Made by a program: the position numbers and the translations under genes. From NCBI GenBank assembly GCA_965206595.1, contig OZ242214.1:6016001-6080000 (forward strand): a stretch of DNA of 64,000 bases. Direction: 5' to 3'. This stretch comes from Candidatus Latescibacterota bacterium (GTDB lineage: Bacteria > Latescibacterota > UBA2968 > UBA8231). Shown here piece by piece: positions 24,557-40,824 of this stretch (position 1 is the stretch's first letter; every line of letters begins with the position of its first letter). The notes under the pieces were generated by a model. That model did not search any database. It had not been told where the DNA came from and worked only from the letters and a program-made list of their open reading frames with translations.

Positions 24557-27199
24557 ATGGCAATCACGAACCACGAGCGCGTCGGCACGGCGATGGAGTT
24601 GCTCCGTCAGGGACTGGCCCCGTTCGTCGAACGCGAGCTGAACGACAAGGTCAAGAGGAACGCCGTCGACATGGACGTTCTTCGCCGCTTCGAGATCGAC
24701 AAGCCGTACCGCGAGTGGGACGCGGCTGCCCTCCTCCGGCTGATGGGGGATAACTGGAGGGACGTCTTCAGCGACACCCTCGGCTACACAGAGCGCAGCC
24801 TGGTTTCCGAGCTGCGTGAATGGCGCAACAAGTGGGCGCACCAGGAGCGCTTCTCCAGCGACGACGCCGACCGCGCCCTTGACTCCGCGGAGCGTCTTCT
24901 CACCGCGGTTTCCGCCCCCCAGGCGGCCGAGGCCGCAAAGATGAAGCTGGAGCTGCGCCGGCGGGTGTTCGACGAACAGGTGCGTGGGGAGCAGCGCCGG
25001 GCCATCGGCAGTCTTGTCGAAACCGTGAGCGCCGGTGGCCTCCAGCCCTGGCGCGAGGTGGTGATCCCTCACACCGACGTGGCCAGCGGCCGCTATCAGC
25101 AGGCGGAGTTCGCCGCCGACTTGGGGCAGGTGCACCTGGGCGAGGGCACGGACGAGTACCGCGACCCCGGGGAATTCTTCCGGCGCACCTTCCTCACCGA
25201 CAGTCTCAAGCGGTTGCTGGCCGGCGGCGCCCAGCGTCTCGCCGGCAAAGGCGGTGACCCGGTGGTGCAGCTGCAGACCAACTTCGGGGGCGGCAAGACC
25301 CACTCGATGCTGGCGCTCTACCACCTGTACTCCGGAATCCCTGCTCGCGAACTCACCGGCATGGACGAGGTGCTGGCGGAAGCCGGGGTCCAGATTCCCT
25401 CGGAGGTTAAGCGCGTGGTGCTGGTCGGCAACCGGATTTCACCGGGAAACCCGGTGACCAAAGCGGACGGCACGGTGGTGCGCACCATGTGGGGCGAGCT
25501 CGCCTGGCAGATCGGCGGCAGGGAGGGGTTCGAGCGGGTGCGTGCCGACGACGAGCGGGCGACCAGCCCGGGGGACGTGCTGCGGGAGTTGCTGCAGGAG
25601 TACGGGCCCTGCCTGGTTCTGATCGACGAGTGGGTCTCCTACGCGCGCCAGCTTCACGACGACCCCGATCTGCCGGCGGGCAGCTTCGAGACTCAGTTCA
25701 CCTTCGCACAGGCGCTGACCGAGTCGGTGAAGCTCACGGGCAACTGCCTGCTGGTGGTCTCGCTGCCGGCTTCCGACATCTCGACTCCCGATTCTCCCCA
25801 CACCGAGGCGGACGACGCCGAGGTCGGGGGCGTTCGCGGGCGCGGCGCCCTGGATCGGCTGCGCAACGTGCTGGGCCGGATCGACTCTCCGTGGAGGCCG
25901 GCCAGCGCCGAGGAGAGCTTCGAGATCGTGCGCCGGCGGTTGTTCGAGCCTCTCGCCGGGCCGGACCCCTTCACGCAGCGCGACGTCACCGCCCGCGCCT
26001 TCTCCGAACTGTATCGCTTACAACAGGTCGAGTTCCCCGCGGAGTGCCGCACCGCCGACTACGAGCGCCGCATCCGGACCGCCTACCCGATTCATCCCGA
26101 GATCTTCGACCGACTCTACACGGACTGGTCCGCCCTCGCCAAGTTTCAGCGCACCCGGGGCGTGTTGCGCCTGATGGCCGCGGTGATCCACAGCCTGTGG
26201 GAGCGGGGGGACCAGAACCCACTGCTGCTGCCCTCCACCCTTCCCATCGACGACGACCGCGTGCGCAACGAGCTGACCCGCTACCTCTCCGACAACTGGA
26301 ACCCCGTCATCGACAAGGACGTCGACGGCCCGGGCTCGCTGCCGGTCGCCATCGACGGGAGGGCGCCCAACCTCGGCAAGCTCTCCGCCACGCGGCGGGT
26401 GGCGCGCACCGTCTACCTCGGCTCGGCGCCTACTACCGCGGCGGCGCACCGCGGCATCGACGACTCCCGGGTCAAGCTCGGATGCGTCATGCCGGGGGAA
26501 TCTCCGGCGGTCTTCGGCGACGCCCTGCGCAGGCTGGCGGCGGAGGCGACCTATCTCTACCAGGACGGCCCGAGGCAGTGGTACGCCACCCAGCCGACGG
26601 TCACCAAGCTGGCCGAGGACCGGGCCGAGCAACTGGCCGGCAACCCCGACGCGGTCGCCAGGGAGCTGGAGGAGCGGCTGAAGAAGGACCTGCGCAGCAC
26701 CGGGGACTTCGACCGCATCCACACCCTGCCCCGCTCGGGAGCGGACGTGCCGGACGACCTCGACGCACGGCTGGTGGTGCTCTCCGCGGAGCATCCCTGT
26801 TCGAGGGACCCGGACAATGCGGCCGAGGTGGCGGCCCGGGAAATCCTGGAGTCGCGCGGCAGTACGCCGAGGCTGTTCCGCAACACCCTGGTCTTCCTGG
26901 CGGTCGACAAGGTGCGGTACCAGGACCTCGACGAGGCCCTGCGCCGCTACCTGGCCTGGGTGTCGATCCTCGACGAGAAGGAGGAGCTCAACCTCGACCC
27001 GCATCAGGCCCGGCAGGCGGAAACGCAGATGAAGGCAGCCGACGAGGCGGTGACCGCGCGGCTGCCGGAGGCGTACCAGTGGCTGCTGGTTCCGGGACAG
27101 GAAAGGCCGGATGCGGCGGCACCTACATCGAATCCTACGCAATCATGCGGATGCAGGATGAAGGAGGACGAGAGTAGAATCCATAAAGGAATTAAATGA
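24557..27199 (+). pseudogene. Swt1-like HEPN + DUF499 AAA+ ATPase, copy 1; 3'-truncated at about 27114
   Basis: RNKWAH, QTNFGGGKTH, LIDE motifs. Matches copy 2 up to QERPDA, then has an unrelated tail; about 250 aa are missing. Confidence 0.9.
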
Positions 27200-27266: not shown

Positions 27267-27473
27267 ATGCCTATTAACGGTAAAGTTCAGTGCATCGACC
27301 ATTGTATCCATCATATCGTTGCTGCTCTTAATGCTGGCGGAGTCCGAACTATAGCGAGCTGTTGCGGTCACGGAAAAACGAAGGGGGATATAATCCTTGA
27401 AGATGGCCGCGTATTAATCATTCAGAGTAGGCCAGAATCGACGGAAGAATGGGGTAAAGCTGTCACTCTCTAA
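27267..27473 (+). CDS. Small phage-type Cys/His protein
   Basis: IDHCIHHIVAALNAGGVRTIASCCGHG, a pattern I recognise from phage hypothetical proteins. Confidence 0.55.
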   Translation: MPINGKVQCIDHCIHHIVAALNAGGVRTIASCCGHGKTKGDIILEDGRVLIIQSRPESTEEWGKAVTL

Positions 27474-27679
27474 CTGGTATGACAGTTAGGAGAGCAGTAA
27501 GCACACCCGTTAGATTTCTCGAAATATTCCTTGGCTTTTTCAACTGCCTCTTGGCAGGTGTCAAATTCCCCGAGATAAGTTCGGTTATCGTGATATGGAA
27601 TCCGCTTGCATCCAATTTCATGAACTTCATGGTCTCCATTGTCTTGTTCATTCTTGTTCACGAAAAAATGTTTTGCCAT
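27470..27679 (-). CDS. Small conserved Cys/His-rich hypothetical protein
   Basis: FVNKNEQDNGDHEVH..GC...YLG.F..C..A...A...NGCAYCS..CHTS. Confidence 0.7.
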   Translation of the reverse strand: MAKHFFVNKNEQDNGDHEVHEIGCKRIPYHDNRTYLGEFDTCQEAVEKAKEYFEKSNGCAYCSPNCHTS

Positions 27680-27910
27680 CGGAAGCAGTTCGAGGATGCC
27701 GGGCTCGACACTCCGAGTGATTCGACCATTGCCGAGATACGGAATGAATTTCTCGGGGAAGGTCCCGACATCGGCCCGGTGACGTTTGCGTATGTCCTGG
27801 AAGGAAATGCTCTGTTGTTGTCCACCGACAATGAAAGTATTGCCCTCTCTCGAAGTAGGGTAACCGCAGTAATAACAACAAGTTGGGGTAGGATCAAGTC
27901 ACGGAATTAG
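27680..27910 (+). pseudogene. 3' fragment of a secreted-type protein ending in TAVITTSWGRIKSRN
   Basis: Open frame to TAG 27910 with a C-terminal SWGxxK motif, followed by a terminator; no 5' part present. Confidence 0.5.
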
Positions 27911-27918
27911 GCTTGTCG

Positions 27919-27953
27919 GCGGCGGGTATCTTCGGATAGTTGCCGCTTTTTTT
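27919..27953 (+). terminator. Rho-independent terminator
   Basis: gcggcgggtatc-TTCG-gatagttgccgc followed by T7. Confidence 0.75.
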
Positions 27954-27959
27954 AGCCTC

Positions 27960-27989
27960 TTGACAGGGCTCCGGGGAATGCCGTAGCGT
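27960..27989 (+). promoter_or_regulatory. Candidate sigma70 promoter for 28046
   Basis: TTGACA-18 nt-TAGCGT. Confidence 0.4.
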
Positions 27990-28045
27990 TGGGGATCGAG
28001 ACAGCAAACAGGTGAACAATCGTTCAGACGAAAGGATCAGGAATA

Positions 28046-29980
28046 ATGGCTCTCAAGAAGCTCGGAAACAGCTACCTCGTAGGTGCCAGCGACAGCGCGG
28101 AGGCATCATTCGACGAAGACATCAATTACCGGGGGTGGAAGGATTTCCTCGTGTGGGTACCTTCGTACGACTCCGATCAGCAGGCCGTGATTACCGGGTA
28201 TTCCGACGAATCGGACTCCTGGATAGATGCCTCCCTCTACCGCTGCAGCAATCTCCTGGATGATCCAGGGACGTTTGTGGACGATGAATCCGTACGATCC
28301 CTGACACGGGCAGCAGGAGGAGGGTCCATGACGTTTGAGTTCGGCCCGGAACCAGCTCGCCTTTCCGGGCTGTTCCGTCTCCGAATCAAGCCAAGAGACA
28401 ATGATTCGATGTTCACGGTGAACTTTCAGAACCTTCCCTGGTATGCCCTGGAGTGCTGGGAGCCGCGCAATAATTTCTACATCTACGGCCTCTCCAGCCT
28501 CGATTCCATCGATCAGTATTTCTTCATTCCAAGGCTGACCGAGGATGCCGATTATGTTCGGGTGCGGTTGCAGACCGAGAAGGCGATAGAAAACGCACGA
28601 ATCGACATATACACGGAAACCGGGGAAGATCCAATTGCTACGGCGGAATGCAAGGGCGAGAATGCATCAGGAGACGATCACCCCTGGTTCGACACGGCTC
28701 AGATAGAGGGAGACGACCTTCCCTCAGAGTATCCAGGAGCGATATATCGCTTCCGTCTTACTCGGGTAATTCCTAATGGGATATCAAGCAATCAGCCATC
28801 CGGAAACGTGTGGGTGCGGTTTTCCAGGAATGTGCCGCCGTATTTCGCCTCCAAGGCCGAGCGATTGATTTACCCGATCCTGCACCGGAGAATCGAGCCG
28901 GTTACATATGTCGATGAATCTCGATCCCACCGGCTATACCTGACAGTTCCCCGGACCGTTCCTTCGGGAGAAACGGCTATTATCCCGGAAGCCAGTGAAC
29001 TGAAGTTGAAAACGGGAACGTCGCCGGAATCGGACACGACAACGGGCTATTCCGTTATCACAACACTGACCTTGGATTCTCCTCAGAAGATCGAAAGAGG
29101 AGATAGCTTCATCGCGCAACTCCTGGATGGGGATACGGTAATCGCGGACAGCACCGACAAGGTCGATACCCTTTACGGCATTCGGGAGCCCGTATACGAC
29201 AGCGACTTTCCCGAGAAACTGATACCCGCTTGGGATAACGGGAACGGCAGGTATACCTCCCAGGATATGAGCGCCGGACATATCAACACAGTTCAGACGA
29301 GCGACGAAACCTCCATACCGAACATTATTGCAGTATCGGGAGTGAAAGCCTGGGGTGCTCTGTATACACCTCCAGAGCAAGACAATCCTCTAATAAAAGC
29401 TTGGTTCAAGACAGAGGTCGGAGGAGAATACCCGAATGCAAACAGCGAGAATGTTCGCTTTTGGGGATACAAAGACGAACCCGACAGCGGCCCTGGGTAT
29501 CACCGGGCTTCTGGAAACGTCTATCCGGTAACTGCTCTCAAGAACTTGTATGATGCGTTTCTATGCTATACGGGTTATACAAGCAAGCCCTTTCAAATCA
29601 CCATCCAGCACACCATTTTCATCGAGGAATTCAGCCAAGCCTGCGACATTATTGGCAGCGATCCCTACGTCTGTGCAGTGAAGCATACCGAGAATTACAG
29701 GCGAGTGCGGGACTGCGTAGCGGAGCTGACGTACAATCAAAAGTCTCAACAAAAGCGAATGATTATCATGTGGTGGTGGGACCCGAAAGTAGGGGCGGAA
29801 ACAGCCGTTGAAGTAACCCTTTTCGAAGACGCATTCGCAGAAGCAACGGACATGGAGAGCATAGGCGGATGGAACTTTTCCGCTGGAGGGTATCCGGTAG
29901 TTAACCCGCTGAACACTGGTGATACTGATTTATGGACGGCGATAACAAACAAGAACAACGACTGGATCAATCCGACATAA
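28046..29980 (+). CDS. 644-aa hypothetical protein, possible C-terminal GH-like TIM barrel
   Basis: Long ORF with RBS; WGYKDEPD and DIIGSDPY resemble clan GH-A-like motifs (tentative). Confidence 0.6.
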   Translation: MALKKLGNSYLVGASDSAEASFDEDINYRGWKDFLVWVPSYDSDQQAVITGYSDESDSWIDASLYRCSNLLDDPGTFVDDESVRSLTRAAGGGSMTFEFGPEPARLSGLFRLRIKPRDNDSMFTVNFQNLPWYALECWEPRNNFYIYGLSSLDSIDQYFFIPRLTEDADYVRVRLQTEKAIENARIDIYTETGEDPIATAECKGENASGDDHPWFDTAQIEGDDLPSEYPGAIYRFRLTRVIPNGISSNQPSGNVWVRFSRNVPPYFASKAERLIYPILHRRIEPVTYVDESRSHRLYLTVPRTVPSGETAIIPEASELKLKTGTSPESDTTTGYSVITTLTLDSPQKIERGDSFIAQLLDGDTVIADSTDKVDTLYGIREPVYDSDFPEKLIPAWDNGNGRYTSQDMSAGHINTVQTSDETSIPNIIAVSGVKAWGALYTPPEQDNPLIKAWFKTEVGGEYPNANSENVRFWGYKDEPDSGPGYHRASGNVYPVTALKNLYDAFLCYTGYTSKPFQITIQHTIFIEEFSQACDIIGSDPYVCAVKHTENYRRVRDCVAELTYNQKSQQKRMIIMWWWDPKVGAETAVEVTLFEDAFAEATDMESIGGWNFSAGGYPVVNPLNTGDTDLWTAITNKNNDWINPT

Positions 29981-29981
29981 C

Positions 29982-30944
29982 ATGGTTCTACTGTTCGCCA
30001 TTCTCGTTCCATCCCTGTCCTGGGGACAAATAGCCTTTTACGGCACTTCTCCTAACCCGAATGATGCGTCTACTTCCAGCCACCACCTATGTATTATCGA
30101 TCAATCCGGATCTTTAATAGAAAAGTGGGGTGGAGGGGGAGGCTCCTGGGATCTGTCCCCAGACGGCACAACCATTGCCTATGTATGGTTGAAGCGGGAG
30201 ATGGGAACTTCGTCGTATTATCTGCACGCGCATAATTTTCTGGAATCATCTTACTGGACCATATGGGATTCAGCAACATACGCATATAAAAGCGCGATAA
30301 GATGGTCTCCTGCGGGTGATAATCTGGTTGCTTTCTTGTTGGACAACCAGGAAATAAGGGTAATGGCGGCGGAAAACTTTTGGGAAAGGGATCATTCAAA
30401 TGAGTTGTTCAAAAGGGTGATCGATGTTGGAATGCATGTTTCCGATATTGATTGGGCTCCTAATGAACGATTCGTAGTTTCGTCCGGGACAGAGGAAATA
30501 TGGATTACGGATGGAACCAACTTGGAGTTTCTTAGCAGAGGTCAGTATCCCAGGGTATCGCCAGATGGCAAGAAAATCGCCTTTGTTGTTCCTGGAAAAT
30601 CCTTCTCTGAATACGACGACTTTCCGGACGCCAAGATTTCCGGGTATGAAAATAGTGTATGGACAATGAACCTCGACGGATCTCATAAGAGATTTATACA
30701 CAAATGGGAATTTGGATCGAGGGGAGTAGCATGGTCTCCCGATTCTCGGGAACTTGCTTTTGCCGATGGAGTAAAGATGTGGGAGAGCTACGTCAAGGCA
30801 GTGTCCTTGAATGGAGTTGTCAGAACGATACTCCATGTTGAAAAGAGGGTCAGAAAAATTGAATGGGCAGCTCCCTGGCTGGATCAGACGACAGGCATAA
30901 CTCCTGCATCTTGGGGAGCGGTGAAACATGAACAGAATTATTAA
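29982..30944 (+). CDS. Secreted TolB-like (PD40) beta-propeller with C-terminal SWGxxK tail
   Basis: Signal peptide-like N-terminus; repeated SPDG/WSP motifs; ends TTGITPASWGAVKHEQNY. Confidence 0.8.
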   Translation: MVLLFAILVPSLSWGQIAFYGTSPNPNDASTSSHHLCIIDQSGSLIEKWGGGGGSWDLSPDGTTIAYVWLKREMGTSSYYLHAHNFLESSYWTIWDSATYAYKSAIRWSPAGDNLVAFLLDNQEIRVMAAENFWERDHSNELFKRVIDVGMHVSDIDWAPNERFVVSSGTEEIWITDGTNLEFLSRGQYPRVSPDGKKIAFVVPGKSFSEYDDFPDAKISGYENSVWTMNLDGSHKRFIHKWEFGSRGVAWSPDSRELAFADGVKMWESYVKAVSLNGVVRTILHVEKRVRKIEWAAPWLDQTTGITPASWGAVKHEQNY

Positions 30945-31005
30945 GGCTGCCGTAATCGCCATCGGAGTGTTTGTGGTTCTATTTCTCCATTGGATCATTC
31001 CGTAA
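30928..31005 (+). CDS. Candidate 25-aa single-TM peptide
   Basis: GGGGAG upstream; MNRIIKAAVIAIGVFVVLFLHWIIP. Confidence 0.35.
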   Translation: MNRIIKAAVIAIGVFVVLFLHWIIP

Positions 31006-31044
31006 CGGGGGAAGACGACACAAGTAACTGCCGCCTCCCCCTTG

Positions 31045-32038
31045 CTATTTCACGAGGTCCCTGTAAAGCAGACGTTTTCCGACCATACATGCAACAAGGT
31101 CTTCCATTTGATCGAGCGTATCACGGTTCCTGATGTTATGCTTTCCGACAAACTCATCGACGTATCGCTGTAGGTGCTTTGGAGACCATAGATGATACGT
31201 TCCCTTGTAGGCTCGCTTCATCATCGACCAAAAACTCTCTATGCCGTTGACGTGACAGTCCCCGGAAACATACTCCCCCCTGGAGTGCCTTACGGCCTTG
31301 TGACGGCCCGGCCAGTCAAACCCTTGGTATGCCGTAGCACTGTCGCTGTAAAGCGTTCCACGGCGTCTCAGGTGCCTTCTTGCGAAGTCTCGGAGGGTAT
31401 CGGGAGAGGTATCGGGAATGACCTTGGCAGCTACCCTTCCGGTGCGTCTATCCCTCATGCCGACAACAGCCGTTTTGCCTTCCGGCCATCGCTCATGTAG
31501 CTTGCGGTCGGCATGTTTATTGTGCTCCCTACCGCCGAAATATGCCTCGTCAATCTCCGCTTTCTTGCTGCGTAATCGCGGGGGATCGCTCCACGCTTCC
31601 CGTATCCGGTGCGCCAGGAACCAGGCGGAACGTTGCGTCATACCGAGGTCCCGGTGCAGCTTCAGGCTGGACACACCCTTCAACGACGACAAGTGCAGGT
31701 AGATTGCAATTGCCCATTTTTGATACGAGATATTCGACGCTTCGAGCACCGTTCCGGTTCGCACAGAGAACCGATTGCGGCAGTCTCCGCACCAGTACGG
31801 CTGCGGCTTGCGATTCGGGCATTCGGAAATCATGCCGTAACATCCACAGCGAAGGGCAGCATATTACGTCGCTCCATCGCACAGATTCGAACCACTGTTC
31901 CGCCGTTCTGTTGTCCGGGAACTTCTCGAAAAGCTCTATCAGGGAGACACCTTCCCTGTCGTTCCTTCCCGGCCCCTGGGGGAGAAATCCGCGCCCGACC
32001 TTCGACCAGCGACCGAGGAAGCGTTTCAGGATTTTCAT
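31045..32038 (-). mobile_element. IS1595-family transposase, frameshifted near 31850
   Basis: Zn-ribbon (RW....CP / C.DC..RFSVRTGT), EIDEAYFGG, LYSD, HVNGIESFWS, HLQRYVDEF. Terminal IRs not identified. Confidence 0.85.
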
Positions 32039-32472
32039 ATCAATCCCAGCTCCTTGAACGAGATATTTTCCTTCGGTGGGGCAATGATTACATGGTCTTT
32101 GACATCTATCCCTATCAGGTTTCCTACGTCCCGGAGCCGGTGCGTAAGGGATATATCGTCGTCGCTCGGTGCAGGGTCTCCCGAAGGGTGATTATGGGCC
32201 AGGACGATACCGTTAGCGCCCTTGAGGATCGCGGACTTGAACACCTCCCGAGGGTGCACGATGGAGGCTGTTTGACTGCCGATAGACGTTACCTCGTGGG
32301 CAACGACACGGTTCCTGGCGTCAAGGTGAAGCACGATGAAAAACTCCCTGTCTGAATTACGGAAATCCAAGCTGTCCAGGTAGACGATGACGCTATCGGG
32401 ACCGACGAGAGCATCGGAGCATACGTCTTGCCATACCTGTTTCACGGTGCGTTCTACGATTTCGATCTTCAT
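32035..32472 (-). CDS. radC: RadC-like JAB-domain protein
   Basis: REFFIVLHLD...VHPREVF...HNHPSGDPAPSDDD...DHVII. Confidence 0.9.
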   Translation of the reverse strand: MKIEIVERTVKQVWQDVCSDALVGPDSVIVYLDSLDFRNSDREFFIVLHLDARNRVVAHEVTSIGSQTASIVHPREVFKSAILKGANGIVLAHNHPSGDPAPSDDDISLTHRLRDVGNLIGIDVKDHVIIAPPKENISFKELGLI

Positions 32473-32515
32473 TTGAAAATCCTTTCTGTCGGTGTTCACC
32501 GACGTTAGGTGAGTG

Positions 32516-32827
32516 ATGGCCTTCCGTGATATCCTGATAGAAACCATACTGAACATCGGGGAAAGCCAGATAGACAAGGGCAAGTTTAACGTTCTGCCAG
32601 ACAGCTTTCTTGTCCGTGAACTGATACGTCTGGAGCTGATTTATGCAAGACAGAAGGACGACAGGTTCAGGGACCTTCGGTTGACGAAGAAGGGAAAGCA
32701 GCTCTTCATCCGGGAGACGTTGCGAAAGCCAGCGCCAGAAATAGAGGATATTCTGTCGCGGTTCGGAAAGACAGGAGCGGAGCCGGAAACTGCTTTGATT
32801 GAACTGATATGCTTGGACTGCGAATAG
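32516..32827 (+). CDS. Hypothetical protein, possible winged-helix
   Basis: ORF containing LRLTKKGK, resembling a wing-helix end. Confidence 0.45.
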   Translation: MAFRDILIETILNIGESQIDKGKFNVLPDSFLVRELIRLELIYARQKDDRFRDLRLTKKGKQLFIRETLRKPAPEIEDILSRFGKTGAEPETALIELICLDCE

Positions 32828-33345
32828 GACTACTGGCATTACTCCTTGCGCCGGTGTGGGCACAGGACCCCCTTGAATCCATATGGGTAGTTAGACAGGA
32901 GGGACAGGTTGTTGTGGCCTGGATGGCCATAGAGGGAGCCATAGGGTATCAGGTATACGTAGAGGTGGAGGTGTCTGTCGGAATGACAGACGAGGGCTTA
33001 GTGGATTTGGAAGAGCCTACTACCGTGTTCGTCCCCTGGGGGTTTGTCGAGCAGGGGGAAGGGGAAATTATCCAGGCTGGCGTTGCCCTGTTTTCCTACG
33101 GCCGTATTGCTGTGTCTGCTGTGTATCTGATAGATGGAGAGCCGGTGCCATCAGAAAAAACATACTTGTGGATTCCTGCATCGGCTGACTTCAACGACAA
33201 TGGCCGCATTGACCTGGAGGATTTCTTCCTGTTTGCGGACGCCTTTGGGAGTACCGAACAGCAATTTGACCTGGATGGATCAGGTACTGTAGGATTCGGG
33301 GATCTTTACATCTTCGTAGATGCGTTCAATGCCCATCGCATCTAA
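32809..33345 (+). CDS. Secreted protein with C-terminal dockerin/EF-hand-like module
   Basis: Signal peptide; ADFNDNGRIDLEDFFLFADAFG...FDLDGSGTVGFGDLYIF. Confidence 0.75.
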   Translation: MLGLRIGLLALLLAPVWAQDPLESIWVVRQEGQVVVAWMAIEGAIGYQVYVEVEVSVGMTDEGLVDLEEPTTVFVPWGFVEQGEGEIIQAGVALFSYGRIAVSAVYLIDGEPVPSEKTYLWIPASADFNDNGRIDLEDFFLFADAFGSTEQQFDLDGSGTVGFGDLYIFVDAFNAHRI

Positions 33346-33544
33346 TCCACCCCTGATTAGGAAGGTAGCCTTGTTCTATGGCTACAACTGACGACAACCT
33401 GAATTCCAGCTCCCGCACTTCCCCGCCGTGCTCCTGGCGGTGCTGTGTTGCCTCTGGCAGGGTTTCAAATCGTGCAACAGCTCCGTCTTTCACGACTATC
33501 CAGCGGCGAATTACCCAGCGGGGTAGGTCTACTTCATCGGGCAT
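33326..33544 (-). CDS. Small hypothetical protein
   Basis: AGGAGG RBS; shares a base with the stop of the upstream ORF. Confidence 0.5.
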   Translation of the reverse strand: MPDEVDLPRWVIRRWIVVKDGAVARFETLPEATQHRQEHGGEVRELEFRLSSVVAIEQGYLPNQGWIRCDGH

Positions 33545-33789
33545 TACACCCTCCTTCCTGTTGGGGTTACGTGCTGCTTCAGCACTCTTGTAAGCTCCTT
33601 CGCCGATACCTGCTTCCGCTCTCCTACGAGAGTCCGGAGGGCGGTATCTGTGACTACATTCGGCAATCTGTCAAGGTCATTCTCCTTGATATGATCGCCT
33701 ACCAGCTCGACAATCTTTACCCAAGACAGCGGCACATTGCCGACGATTACTGCAAGCTTGGGCGAAGGTTGAAACAATTCTGAGGGCAT
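33544..33789 (-). CDS. Small hypothetical protein
   Basis: AAGGAG RBS; transcribed divergently from the mini-array region. Confidence 0.55.
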   Translation of the reverse strand: MPSELFQPSPKLAVIVGNVPLSWVKIVELVGDHIKENDLDRLPNVVTDTALRTLVGERKQVSAKELTRVLKQHVTPTGRRV

Positions 33790-33869
33790 GTATTCTCCTT
33801 TCGTTTTGGGGCGGGCGCTGGATAAATCGGGGGGCTCCTTTTGTGGATCGGCTCTCCGGTTTTAGGGAA

Positions 33870-33980
33870 GCCGGTTGCCCGCCCTATGGCCCCGGCCTCA
33901 TTGAAGCCGATATAGGTATCCCAATGTATAGACTTTATCACCAACCTTCCGGGATCGAAAGGTCCCGGCCTCATTAAAAT
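33870..33980 (+). CRISPR. Orphan single-spacer mini-array with type I-G (I-U)-like repeats
   Basis: Repeat 2 (33946-33980) CTTCCGGGATCGAAAGGTCCCGGCCTCATTAAAAT; degenerate repeat 1 ends ...CCCGGCCTCATTGAAGC (33907); 38-nt spacer 33908-33945. Confidence 0.7.
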
Positions 33981-34003
33981 GGAAATCCTGAAGGAGAGCA
34001 CGC

Positions 34004-34219
34004 ATGATACTGCTGCTGTTGTTGTTGGTGGCGTCTCCTATCATGGCGGACATCGACCGATGGGAAGCATTCGCATACAGTGGGACGTTCACCTACCTTC
34101 AGGCAAGGCCCATCTCTTACACTCAGAAACTGGTGTCTGACGGGCAAAGGTTCGATGTTATGTCAGTCAGTCAGTTCATTGGGGTGGGATACTGCTTCAA
34201 GGGCGGGGAGGTGGAGTGA
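34004..34219 (+). CDS. Small secreted/hydrophobic protein
   Basis: AAGGAG RBS; MILLLLLLVASPIMA signal-like N-terminus. Confidence 0.55.
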   Translation: MILLLLLLVASPIMADIDRWEAFAYSGTFTYLQARPISYTQKLVSDGQRFDVMSVSQFIGVGYCFKGGEVE

Positions 34220-34572
34220 TGGCCAAAGGAGAGTTGTTTCTTCCATCCAAAGCACTCGGGGCCATCGTTGGACATGAGCCGTTGTCCAGGGAAGAGGTGG
34301 TCAGGAATTTATGGCACTACATCAAAGATCGAGGTTTGCAGGACGGTAGGACTGTCAATGCTGACGATAAGCTCATGGTTCTATTTGGGGGCGAAGAGTA
34401 TATGGATATGATAGATGTCGTTCAGATTGTCCACCATCATCTTGATGGGGTTTTTGAAATGGATACTCTCAAGGATTTTCGTAGAGTAGTTCTTCTCAGG
34501 CTAACTCGCATAGAGAAGGCAATCCATAACCATATAGGAACGGAGCCCGATGACGGTGGGGAGGGGTTTTAG
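34216..34572 (+). CDS. SWIB/MDM2-domain protein
   Basis: PSKALGAIVG..PLSREEVVRNLWHYIK..GLQD..TVNADDKL..LFG. Confidence 0.8.
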   Translation: MMAKGELFLPSKALGAIVGHEPLSREEVVRNLWHYIKDRGLQDGRTVNADDKLMVLFGGEEYMDMIDVVQIVHHHLDGVFEMDTLKDFRRVVLLRLTRIEKAIHNHIGTEPDDGGEGF

Positions 34573-34616
34573 ATCCGCCCCTGCAGTGGTAAACGAGCAG
34601 CGCGGCTCCCGCCGCT

Positions 34617-34645
34617 TTGTGTTTCTTTGATTTTTCTGGTATAAT
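34617..34645 (+). promoter_or_regulatory. Strong sigma70-like promoter
   Basis: TTGTGT-17 nt-TATAAT with an extended -10 TG. Confidence 0.6.
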
Positions 34646-34700
34646 ATTATATAGAGCTATGTTTAGAACTTAGCTCTATTTTTTTATGGGAGAATTAAGT

Positions 34701-34988
34701 ATGACAGAATCAACGCGCAATCGTCCAGAGGATGAATCACGATTCGATGTAATAGCGAAGGAGATACTTGAACTACGCAAGAAGCATGAAAGGGATTTCA
34801 GGGTATGGCAGGAGCAATATTCGGCGCAGCTTGAGATAGCCAAAGACCAGATTGATATAGTCAAAGGCTACCAGGAAACCTTGAAGAATCAACAGATAGT
34901 GTTGACAGCATTATTTGAGGACTGGCAAAAGCAATCCAAGAAAAAACGCAAACAAGGACAAGTAACACTCGTATTTCCGACACAGTAA
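34701..34988 (+). CDS. Coiled-coil hypothetical protein
   Basis: GGGAG RBS downstream of the promoter; charged helical sequence. Confidence 0.6.
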   Translation: MTESTRNRPEDESRFDVIAKEILELRKKHERDFRVWQEQYSAQLEIAKDQIDIVKGYQETLKNQQIVLTALFEDWQKQSKKKRKQGQVTLVFPTQ

Positions 34989-35350
34989 AGTTCGAGGTTA
35001 TTTCCCAGGATAGGAACGTCATCAATGAATGTCTTCCTTAGATATGGGAAGAAGTTTGTTCTCAAGATAAGGGGAAACGGATTGGAGATAATACTTGTAA
35101 TATGGATGATTCTACTATGTATAATTGAACTGAAAACATATACTTTTGTAGGCCCCGTTATGCACGCTTTTATGTTTACCGGTGGAGTTATCCTTTCTTC
35201 ATGTGTGCATAAGTGGGCAGCAAGTCGTAATCCCAGGTAGTATAGGGATAAGGGATCAGTGTTGCAGGAAGGGAAGTGCGGCACCGGACGCGACACCCTC
35301 GCCCGGCACCGCGCAGGAATGGACTGAACATACTAACCGAAAGGGAGAAG

Positions 35351-35941
35351 ATGAAGATATTACTACTGATATTAGTAGCAGGGGGAGTGTATGCACAGCC
35401 GCTTGTAGGAGATCGCCCGGACTTCACGGAAGCAGCAGAAGCTGTCGGTATAAATGTCCTACAGATTGAGCTTGGATACACCGCCACACATAACGGGGAT
35501 TGGTCTCATTCCCTTGGAGAACCCCTTCTTCGCGCCGGGGTGCTGGCCGATTGGTTGGAGCTCCGACTTGGCAGGACAGAGGATATCTACCTGGGTATGA
35601 AGCTGGCCTTTACGCCGGGCATCGCTGTAATCCCACAGATAACCCTGCCCACTTCACCGGGAGTGAATCTCGTCTACAGTTGGGACCTTACCGACAGGGT
35701 ATCCTTGGCAGGCAGTTCACAGGTAAATCGGGGAACGGGGTGGGCTCAATCAATTGCGGTAGGAATGAAGGTTAGCGCCCCTATTGGTCTGTATGCAGAG
35801 TGGTATCGGGAGACTGAGCACTATATCAACGGGGGGCTCACTTGGCTGCTGACGGGAAATCTCCAGTGGGACATTCGAGCCGGATTCGGACTGAATGATG
35901 ATATGTTCACGGGCACTGGTATAGTCCTAAGAATTCCTTAG
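35351..35941 (+). CDS. Outer-membrane beta-barrel, MetA-pathway-of-phenol-degradation-like family
   Basis: Signal peptide followed by the DRPDFTE motif; alternating beta-strands ending GIVLRIP. Confidence 0.7.
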   Translation: MKILLLILVAGGVYAQPLVGDRPDFTEAAEAVGINVLQIELGYTATHNGDWSHSLGEPLLRAGVLADWLELRLGRTEDIYLGMKLAFTPGIAVIPQITLPTSPGVNLVYSWDLTDRVSLAGSSQVNRGTGWAQSIAVGMKVSAPIGLYAEWYRETEHYINGGLTWLLTGNLQWDIRAGFGLNDDMFTGTGIVLRIP

Positions 35942-35994
35942 AGTTAGAACAGGCTGACCCCTGGCCGCCGCCATTTACTAAAGGAGTATGAAGT

Positions 35995-36309
35995 ATGACA
36001 GAACAAGAAGAACACACGGCAATTGGTATACTTGTAAAAGACTTGAAGGCTGCTCAACAACGTTTGATATGCTTAGAGAGCAAGTCCAGGAGCATAGCTA
36101 TTAACTTAGACAATATCTCTCATGGTCTAAGTGGTAGAATGTTGATTGCAGAAACCAGCGGTGAAATATCCGTAAGCATAGGCGATGTATTTCAGCAGGT
36201 AATCTATCCATCAAAAGAAGATATTGTTACCCTGATTAAGGAACTGTCCGAGTCTCGGGATAACCTGAAGTTGCTGCAAGAACAATGGGATAGAATCAAA
36301 CCTACGTAG
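35995..36309 (+). CDS. Hypothetical protein
   Basis: AAGGAG RBS; 104 aa; AT-rich. Confidence 0.55.
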   Translation: MTEQEEHTAIGILVKDLKAAQQRLICLESKSRSIAINLDNISHGLSGRMLIAETSGEISVSIGDVFQQVIYPSKEDIVTLIKELSESRDNLKLLQEQWDRIKPT

Positions 36310-36332
36310 CGATTTCCCAGGTAGCTCAATTT

Positions 36333-36408
36333 AGCAGAGTAGCATAATTGGCAATGCCGCATACTGTTAATATGCAAAATGCAGGTTCGAATCCTGCCTC
36401 TGCTGCCA
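36333..36408 (+). tRNA. tRNA-Asn(GTT), phage-like
   Basis: Cloverleaf: AGCAGAG/CTCTGCT acceptor stem, GCAT/ATGC D-stem, GCATA-CTGTTAA-TATGC anticodon arm, GCAGG-TTCGAAT-CCTGC T-arm, G discriminator and encoded CCA; 76 nt. Confidence 0.9.
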
Positions 36409-36976: not shown

Positions 36977-37251
36977 CGACGGCTCATATGGTCCCCCCTT
37001 CCGTTCGACCGAACGACGGGCGGGTGAGAGAGTAGCAAGAGACATTCCGGCGGCTATCGTCGGGGCGTCTCTTGCGCTCGGGCCGCTGCCCGCCCGGGGT
37101 GCCGAAGCGCTCGCTGAATGCTTGTTCCGAGCGCTGAAGCCGGGGTCGATGCGCTACGCGGGACGCGATCCGCGTCCGTTTCCCTACCTTCTTGGTGCCA
37201 ACCAACGCTGACCTCGCATTCGAGGTGCCCGGTCCGAATCGAAGGAAACCC

Positions 37252-40824
<3,573 letters not shown>

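Follow-up and report, generated by a model that had tools for sequence, protein, structure and literature searches.

A one-guide unit derived from CRISPR repeats and cognate to the type I-G system of its host lies in the stretch of DNA analyzed here, a 64-kb segment (hereafter, the window; G000:C1:6016001-6080000) of a genome that consists of a single contig of 7.05 Mb with 63.7% G+C. The unit, which is composed of a truncated repeat (R1), a spacer-like guide, and a degenerate second repeat (R2), is on the plus strand in the 214-bp gap between two divergent small-gene operons of a low-GC island, and probably belongs to the 5' untranslated region (UTR) of one of them, the ORF71-SWIB operon. Elements of this kind are already known as CreA/CreR, Cracr, and mini-arrays. 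We put the chances at about even that the unit is a functioning gene, of the CreA/CreR/Cracr kind, for a crRNA-like RNA whose target was not found, and this probability is divided roughly equally between a non-cleaving use, as a regulator or anti-CRISPR-like RNA, and true interference against an unsampled rival. A working gene is favored because the host possesses cognate I-G genes and an array of 98+1 repeats that share GGCCTCATTGAAGC with the unit, because the parts conserved are the functional parts (stem and linker of R2, handle of R1), and because a likely functional twin of the unit is present upstream of the host csb1 gene.

Architecture and setting of the unit

Table 1. Positions, in window coordinates, of the unit, its parts, and the features around it.
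Feature	Positions	Strand	Description
Low-GC variable island	27400-36330		~9 kb, 48-52% G+C vs 64% for the genome
IS1595 transposase	31045-31833	-	In island
RadC	32035-32583	-	In island
ORF72	33326-33544	-	Follows SWIB81 in divergent minus-strand operon
SWIB-domain protein (SWIB81, 81 aa)	33544-33789	-	PF02201, E 6e-9; first gene of minus-strand operon
Sigma-70-like match	33769-33796		Consensus match only
Conserved divergent intergenic block	33790-33885	+	~80% identical to G001:C2; likely promoter and 5' UTR of plus-strand operon
R1, truncated repeat	33886-33907	+	3' stem arm, linker, intact 8-nt handle
R1 stem arm	33888-33895	+	GGCCCCGG
R1 linker	33896-33899	+	CCTC
R1 handle	33900-33907	+	ATTGAAGC
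Predicted mature crRNA-like RNA	33900-33972	+	73 nt; handle, guide, 3' hairpin, and CCUC, as expected from the Csb2 cleavage rule
Spacer-like guide	33908-33945	+	38 nt, 37% G+C
R2, degenerate repeat	33946-33980	+	CTT CCGGGATC GAAA GGTCCCGG CCTC ATTAAAAT
R2 hairpin	33949-33968	+	8 bp + GAAA
R2 linker	33969-33972	+	CCTC
R2 decayed handle	33973-33980	+	ATTAAAAT
ORF71	34004-34219	+	First downstream gene; AAGGAG ribosome-binding site; hydrophobic signal-like N-terminus
SWIB/MDM2-domain protein (SWIB118, 118 aa)	34216-34572	+	PF02201, E 5e-17; second gene of plus-strand operon
tRNA-Asn	36333-36408		At island end

R1 and R2 have in common the 18-mer GGYCCCGGCCTCATTRAA, two copies of which are present in the window, 73 nt apart; in shuffled windows its mean count was 0.03, and none of 100 shuffles reached two. 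A 19-nt stretch of R1 (query 4-22/23) is 100% identical to the array repeats of relatives; ATTTCCGGGGTGGAAACGCCCCGGCCTCATTGAAGC and TCTTCCGGGGCGAAGCTGCCCCGGCCTCATTGAAGC are examples of the repeats found in I-G arrays of the same family. The handle and linker of R1 match CCTC + ATTGAAGC at all 12 positions, and those of R2 at 9 of 12. R2 folds into a hairpin of 8 bp closed by GAAA (-14.8 kcal/mol), the geometry of which is identical to that of the host repeat (8 bp + UGUU; -14.4 kcal/mol), and the spacer length is inside the range of the host's array B (mostly 34-43 nt). The intact handle of repeat 1, the 38-nt spacer, and the GAAA hairpin with a decayed tail in repeat 2, all claimed in the original prediction from which this analysis started, were confirmed. 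Mere chance likeness to a CRISPR repeat is very improbable: coding DNA can yield GGCCTCATTGAAGC, as it does in the IS1595 transposase genes of genome G010, but the copy count, the 19-nt identity, and the hairpin comparison described below, in which R2 has the full repeat geometry, effectively refute such a reading. The unit contains two diverged repeats only, whereas an array proper would have at least three regular, near-identical repeats by a leader or cas genes; and, in agreement with what had been noted earlier, cas1, csb1, and csb2 are absent from the 64-kb window.

The canonical stem arm is absent on the 5' side of R1, and only a surrogate stem of 4-5 bp can form there, in which CCGG (33871-33874) and the R1 3' arm can pair in the proper register, at a distance of 4 nt from the cleavage site. 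Of the basal stem that had been proposed for repeat 1, the CCGG/CCGG pairing stands, but its 5' arm is not derived from a repeat and its fold is on par with shuffles (z -1.0; 34 of 200 shuffles equally good). The DNA at 33853-33885, which includes the GCCGG arm, is ~80% identical to the intergenic region of a related SWIB module in a congener, G001, where the counterpart of the CCGG reads CCAG. Because this homology runs from the start of SWIB81 to 33885 and gives way to total divergence at 33885/33886, R1 is a truncated repeat joined to conserved DNA; what had been taken for a rewritten loop and basal stem of repeat 1 is likely promoter or 5' UTR DNA.

The window stretch is contained in public runs from seven studies. 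Contigs of X4, X6, and X7 span the unit and are identical to it, and 33817-34082 is not covered in X10; the agreement of X4, X6, and X7 is not independent support, because they probably represent one strain. The unit was not found in 60 relatives searched with a 1.2-kb DNA query, of which only the SWIB81/ORF72 side was matched, and it is missing from the island of G001, the most similar one. As the unit is unique, conservation across lineages is not demonstrable.

The setting between divergent operons of small open reading frames is as had been predicted, with SWIB81-ORF72 on the minus strand, the ribosome-binding sites of which were read in the sequence, and ORF71-SWIB118 on the plus strand. 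The end of R2 is 23 nt from the ATG of ORF71, a gene with no Pfam or PHROG family, and the location of the unit, with the conserved intergenic block on one side and the ORF71 ribosome-binding site on the other, suggests that it is co-transcribed with the operon. The island is patchy within the genus: its flanks are 94-95% identical in G001 but not adjacent there, and G001 has a shorter mosaic relative of it. A related-locus search with SWIB118 gave two distant matches only. A scan of 20 proteins of the island and its flanks recognized IS1595 transposase, RadC, a beta-propeller, an outer-membrane barrel, and two SWIB proteins. Phage structural, plasmid, integrase, and conjugation families were not found among them, and hence the phage-like block of the original prediction was not borne out, the carrier being identified neither as a phage nor as another mobile element. 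The suggestion that the neighboring small genes encode a toxin or an Acr likewise found no support, ORF71 having a signal-peptide-like N-terminus and the others being of SWIB or envelope type.

Two defense-type genes flank the island, one for an 880-aa HEPN_Swt1 + DUF499 protein (window 24557-27199) and the other for a 1210-aa SNF2/ResIII helicase with a NOV_C domain (window 37192-40824). Elsewhere in the window, ten 72-nt tandem units that were flagged as CRISPR (5252-5955) proved to be coding repeats in a 2769-aa open reading frame (513-8822).

The host type I-G system and its repeats

The host genome has three Cas1 loci and three arrays (A, B, and C). In the cas locus at 2.889-2.920 Mb, an I-G module (csb1, csb2, cas3g, cas4g/cas1g, and cas2) is fused to a III-B module, and the genes upstream of array B are csb1, csb2, a Cmr2/3/4/6 module, cas3g, cas2, and cas4g/cas1g. 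In profile searches, Cas3g scored 735 bits (cut-off 400), Cas4g/Cas1g 735 bits (cut-off 560), Csb1 79 bits (cut-off 38), and Csb2 150 and 141 bits (cut-off 45), with Cmr3 slightly below its cut-off (96.2 vs 100.4); the large subunit Csx17/Cas8g (TIGR04113) had no match in the genome in a search whose control was likewise silent. Array B (2912672-2919874) contains 98 identical repeats, CTTTCCGCGATCTGTTGATCGCGGCCTCATTGAAGC, and one extra repeat beyond a 395-bp insertion (99 in total). The final 14 nt of this repeat, GGCCTCATTGAAGC, are the tail of R1, and exact CCTCATTGAAGC occurs outside the 98-repeat run at only two sites in 7.05 Mb, namely, the extra terminal repeat and R1, the window unit (genome 6,049,886-6,049,980) being 3.13 Mb away from the array. 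Both I-G genes and an array with a matching repeat are thus present elsewhere in the genome, which upholds the type I-G identity given to the repeats in the original prediction; the lack of such a system in the host, named there as evidence to the contrary, does not apply.

The hairpin of R2 was compared with those of real repeats in a set of 13 repeat-type hairpins, three arrays identical to that of G086, R1, and the decayed second repeat of G067 being left out. Stem pairs 1, 2, 3, and 5 are invariant across the set, and R2 keeps eight of eight pairs. A-T at pair 6 was found in R2 and host array B only, and C-G at pair 8 is common to these two; at pair 4, R2 has the family-consensus G-C and array B has C-G. 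Compared with the host repeat, R2 shows one compensatory pair flip and one wobble-preserving change in the stem, with all four loop bases changed, CCTCATT kept at seven of seven positions, and three of the last five handle bases changed; 25 of 35 positions (~71%, in our own alignment) are identical overall. The R1 handle is kept at eight of eight. Searches of JGI metagenomes and IMG/VR found no copy of the R2 30-mer, and 167 other genomes of the phylum sample had none at up to three mismatches. Since no array repeat with the R2 hairpin sequence occurs in the collections searched, R2 is not merely a fresh copy of a known array.

In the part of the published I-G biochemistry considered here (PMC9638904), Csb2 cleaves on the 3' side of the hairpin, 4 nt from its base, which generates an 8-nt handle; the enzyme stays bound to the hairpin (KD 43 nM) with no binding of the handle, and the PAM is TTN. 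The parts retained by R1 and R2 are those that are important in this account, and cleavage by the same rule would give a 73-nt RNA with AUUGAAGC at its 5' end and ...CCCGGCCUC at its 3' end. Repeat-mimicking RNA anti-CRISPRs, such as Racr and solitary repeat units, are known (in the portion of PMC10651486 considered), and R2, the structure of which mimics the host repeat hairpin well, resembles them in this respect. The R2 hairpin alone might accordingly be a pure decoy that titrates Csb2 and nucleates aberrant complexes, with the spacer being irrelevant, but we judge this improbable. A decoy needs no upstream handle, yet the window unit differs from Racr, as described there, in having an upstream handle, intact and 38 nt away, and a spacer-length guide, which together with R2 make up a whole crRNA rather than a lone repeat. 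The island, moreover, has no recognizable phage or plasmid identity, and the 99-repeat I-G array bears no sign of attack from it, the spacers of arrays A, B, and C having no match to the window beyond 17 nt.

Several irregularities were observed in array B itself. Its end (G000:C1:2919875-2920430) is rearranged, with the 395-bp MITE-like insertion, which has inverted ends, lying inside the last spacer; beyond the insertion there are one perfect repeat, 22 nt, and then a gene-fragment copy that is 81% identical to the 3' end of the gene preceding the csb1-upstream unit described below. Leader-proximal units (G000:C1:2912708-2913300) have odd spacer lengths of 20, 22, 23, 27, 53, and 77 nt, and a truncated or interrupted repeat lies within both the 53-nt and the 77-nt stretch, each of which separates perfect repeats. 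A 22-nt sequence, GGCCTCATTGAAGC+CGATATAG, is identical between the junction of the array B terminal repeat with its trailer (2920292-2920313) and the R1/spacer junction in the window (33894-33915). By our own estimate, in which all 99 array B junctions of repeat and following sequence were counted, the chance of this identity is ~0.002; common descent from an array end, or recombination between both sites, would explain it.

Aberrant repeats were also seen in other genomes. In G097 (L021, ~2820-2900), an I-G array ends in a degenerate repeat, beyond which the repeat tail recurs in inverted orientation, and a long hairpin could form that sequesters the terminal handle. G067 (L064, ~1480-1600) has a two-repeat orphan, the first repeat intact and the second decayed, between a VapBC-like pair and a dioxygenase-like gene. 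A solitary repeat is present in G010 (L065), a genome with no csb1 match, and three further orphan-repeat matches there (L068-L070) were rejected, being IS1595-family transposase coding sequence (...GLIEADETY...) with DNA identical to GGCCTCATTGAAGC.

A possible though not probable alternative is suggested by such array ends, namely, that the unit is an inert relic. The last spacer of an I-G array, either a former or a rearranged one, would then have been recombined, along with its degenerate terminal repeat, onto the SWIB promoter block, and may persist as 5' UTR sequence without a role in Cascade. The rearranged end of array B, with its insertion and gene fragment, shows that kind of change in the host's own array; the 22-nt identity hints at common descent, and the orphans of G067 and G010 are comparable. 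R1 is cut exactly where the intergenic homology with G001 ends, R2 is decayed at its 3' end as terminal repeats are, and the island, which includes a copy of IS1595, is mosaic. What a relic accounts for less readily is the retention of every stem pair and of the 4-nt linker despite heavy divergence of the loop and distal handle.

A twin unit upstream of csb1 and the search for a target

A genome scan for a 7-8 bp hairpin followed by CCTCATT (at most one mismatch) returned 96 sites, of which only two have the form TT-CCGGG...CCCGG-CCTCATT: R2 and a second one-spacer unit, located in the csb1 upstream gap (G000:C1:2890012-2890100) on the minus strand, opposite to that of csb1. This unit consists of a handle-only first repeat, CCTCGTTGAAGC, a spacer that is 38 nt long in G000, and a hairpinned second repeat with a decayed handle, ATTGAATA. 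When the 420 nt upstream of csb1 were surveyed in 10 loci (Csb1 identity 54-100%; eight more distant loci left out), such units were found in four, those of G000, G023 (L036), G080 (L038), and G086 (L032), with a tail-to-tail spacing of 71-74 nt, vs 73 nt in the window unit. In all four carriers, a match to the initial 8-14 nt of the spacer is found upstream of csb1, on the strand of that gene and beside TTT, TTG, TTA, or TTC. With positions 6 and 12 left free, the seed runs are 12, 12, 14, and 8 nt, lengths that were reached by 1, 0, 0, and 40 of 500 shuffles, respectively; guide and csb1 site differ at position 6 in three of the four genomes. From its sequence, we infer that the csb1-upstream unit follows the CreR pattern, as a regulatory guide. 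The csb1-promoter seed matches in G000 and three relatives suggest that this I-G lineage uses crRNA-like regulators, and the part of 10.1101/2023.03.10.532045 considered here makes mention of creA-like elements of subtype I-U, which is now I-G.

For the window guide, no target was found in the host genome or in viral databases, although the original prediction had looked to these for one. In its own genome, no site other than the unit itself matches the spacer at 25 or more of 38 positions (up to 13 substitutions). The 11-nt seed with at most one mismatch occurs at 36 sites, including the window unit, and the 28 sites that combine TTN with a 7-nt seed are all inside open frames of at least 173 aa; in G000, no cas or toxin promoter was found to contain a match to the seed beside a PAM. 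In the csb1 upstream regions of four genomes, the best seed runs are 4-7 nt (4 nt in G000), none with TTN, and window positions 27-37 kb contain no seed match. INPHARED phages and PLSDB plasmids gave nothing above chance (best E 2 and 5). IMG/VR and JGI metagenomes had no match to the spacer, whether exact or with every sixth base free, in searches by exact patterns that would miss diverged targets. The 76 family genomes yielded chance-level matches only, and the loci fetched (383,322 positions) yielded only a site at genome 2318547.

That site, TTG + seed and the best seed site, is within a coding frame and was rejected, as was a 12-nt seed at genome 490477, which has CCG as its PAM. A match at 27 of 38 positions in G036 is inside a 787-aa surface-protein gene with GTG as its flank, and was attributed to chance together with the shuffle-level matches in G032 (25/38) and G023 (23/38). 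An inverted match (19/25) at window 33162-33186, within ORF178, was likewise put down to chance, since it is flanked by AGC and the seed is mismatched at positions 5, 6, and 10; ORF178 is a member of a multi-copy domain family.

The window guide, which starts with CGATATAGGTA, has no seed in common with the host csb1-upstream guide, which starts with GATGGAAGTTG. The analogy with single-spacer regulators that had been drawn in the original prediction is thus sustained by the csb1-upstream sister with its csb1-promoter seed match, but not by the window guide, which has no target and does not mimic the host's cas-regulating guide. The failure to find a target, and the absence of the unit elsewhere, would also be expected of an inert relic. 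However, the surviving parts amount to exactly one crRNA's worth, arranged in the same pattern as in the seed-matched csb1-upstream unit, and the site downstream of the conserved intergenic block makes transcription likely, both of which argue against a relic.

Relation to known crRNA-like RNAs and possible roles

CreR and CreA are degenerate mini-CRISPRs in cas loci, by means of which Cascade represses a cas or toxin promoter. The window unit resembles them in that two degenerate repeats surround one spacer-length guide, the first keeping its handle and the second its hairpin, and its layout equals that of the host's csb1-upstream unit. It differs from them in being 3.13 Mb from the cas locus, on the low-GC island, and in that its guide has no PAM-flanked promoter seed match in its own genome and no toxin candidate is recognized next to it. 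Cracr RNAs, as described in the part of 10.1101/2024.10.29.618823 considered here, are phage- or plasmid-borne crRNA-like anti-CRISPR RNAs, and the window unit is like them in lying outside the CRISPR-cas locus on apparently foreign DNA and in having pseudo-repeats of the resident system; its RNA could compete for Cas proteins. By contrast, Cracr RNAs are defined in that study by sharing at least nine PAM-proximal bases with the host CreR/CreA guide, which the window guide does not, and the carrier here is a low-GC island with no recognizable phage or plasmid. That study covers types V-A, I-F, I-E, I-C, and I-B, and the part considered, which excludes its supplementary tables, does not mention I-G.

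With viral and prophage mini-arrays (the part of PMC10120712 considered), the unit shares a content of one to two spacers between host-like repeats outside cas loci, but its repeats are far more degraded (R2 as aligned above, R1 truncated), and whereas most of their spacers have a match in another virus or in a cas promoter, none was found for the window spacer. In Table 1 of that study (Shmakov et al.), mini-arrays are recorded in 4% of 235 I-G loci, all of them within CRISPR-cas loci. No I-G example outside a cas locus was found in the literature searched, the scope of which did not extend to the supplementary tables of the Cracr and CreR preprints, where I-U/I-G elements are possibly listed. 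Because the target searches were negative and the guide is unlike that of the host, the window unit departs from CreA/CreR as regards a self promoter target, from Cracr as regards the seed of the guide, and from viral mini-arrays as regards a match to a rival.

If the unit is a working gene, the conserved intergenic promoter would transcribe R1, guide, and R2 together with the ORF71-SWIB operon, and Csb2 would bind the R2 hairpin and cut after CCUC. Either Csb2, with the surrogate stem of CCGG and CCGG as its substrate, or a different RNase would define the 5' end at AUUGAAGC. The resulting 73-nt RNA would nucleate a full I-G Cascade, and could also load the neighboring Cmr complex, which would use the same 8-nt tag. 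Since there is no self target, the loaded complex would compete with the 98 array guides for Cas proteins and/or bind a target outside the genome, possibly in a rival element or in a cas promoter of variant sequence. This possibility is weakened because the target searches were negative, because the unit is unique, and because the R1 hairpin is no better than shuffles. The compensatory changes in the R2 stem could predate the unit, stemming from time in a working array. Terminal repeats of ordinary arrays show decayed 3' ends, a degenerate terminal repeat was seen in G097, and the decayed 3' end of R2 is for this reason a less telling feature. The large subunit Csx17/Cas8g, undetected in the search with the silent control, is a further weakness.

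A more specific and rather unlikely version is that the crRNA-like RNA is matured from the 5' UTR of its own operon, such that cleavage at R2 frees the guide and at the same time severs the ORF71-SWIB mRNA from its leader; the island would thereby tap or dilute, and sense, the I-G/III-B immunity of the host. Were this the case, the RNA would be the first I-G counterpart of Cracr-type RNAs and, together with the host guide that targets the csb1 promoter, would form a two-guide circuit on one Cascade.

Should the unit instead be a relic, it would be an example of array ends scattered by rearrangement. Screens for orphan repeats call for caution, as the repeat tail also occurs in IS1595 transposase genes. 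If the unit is a working gene, crRNA-like guides would prove to be borrowed in type I-G as well, a subtype that has received less study than any other of type I, and on a carrier not recognizable as a phage or a plasmid. The window unit and the csb1-upstream unit would then constitute a natural guide pair in one cell, through which the partition of Cascade between immune and non-immune guides may be approached.
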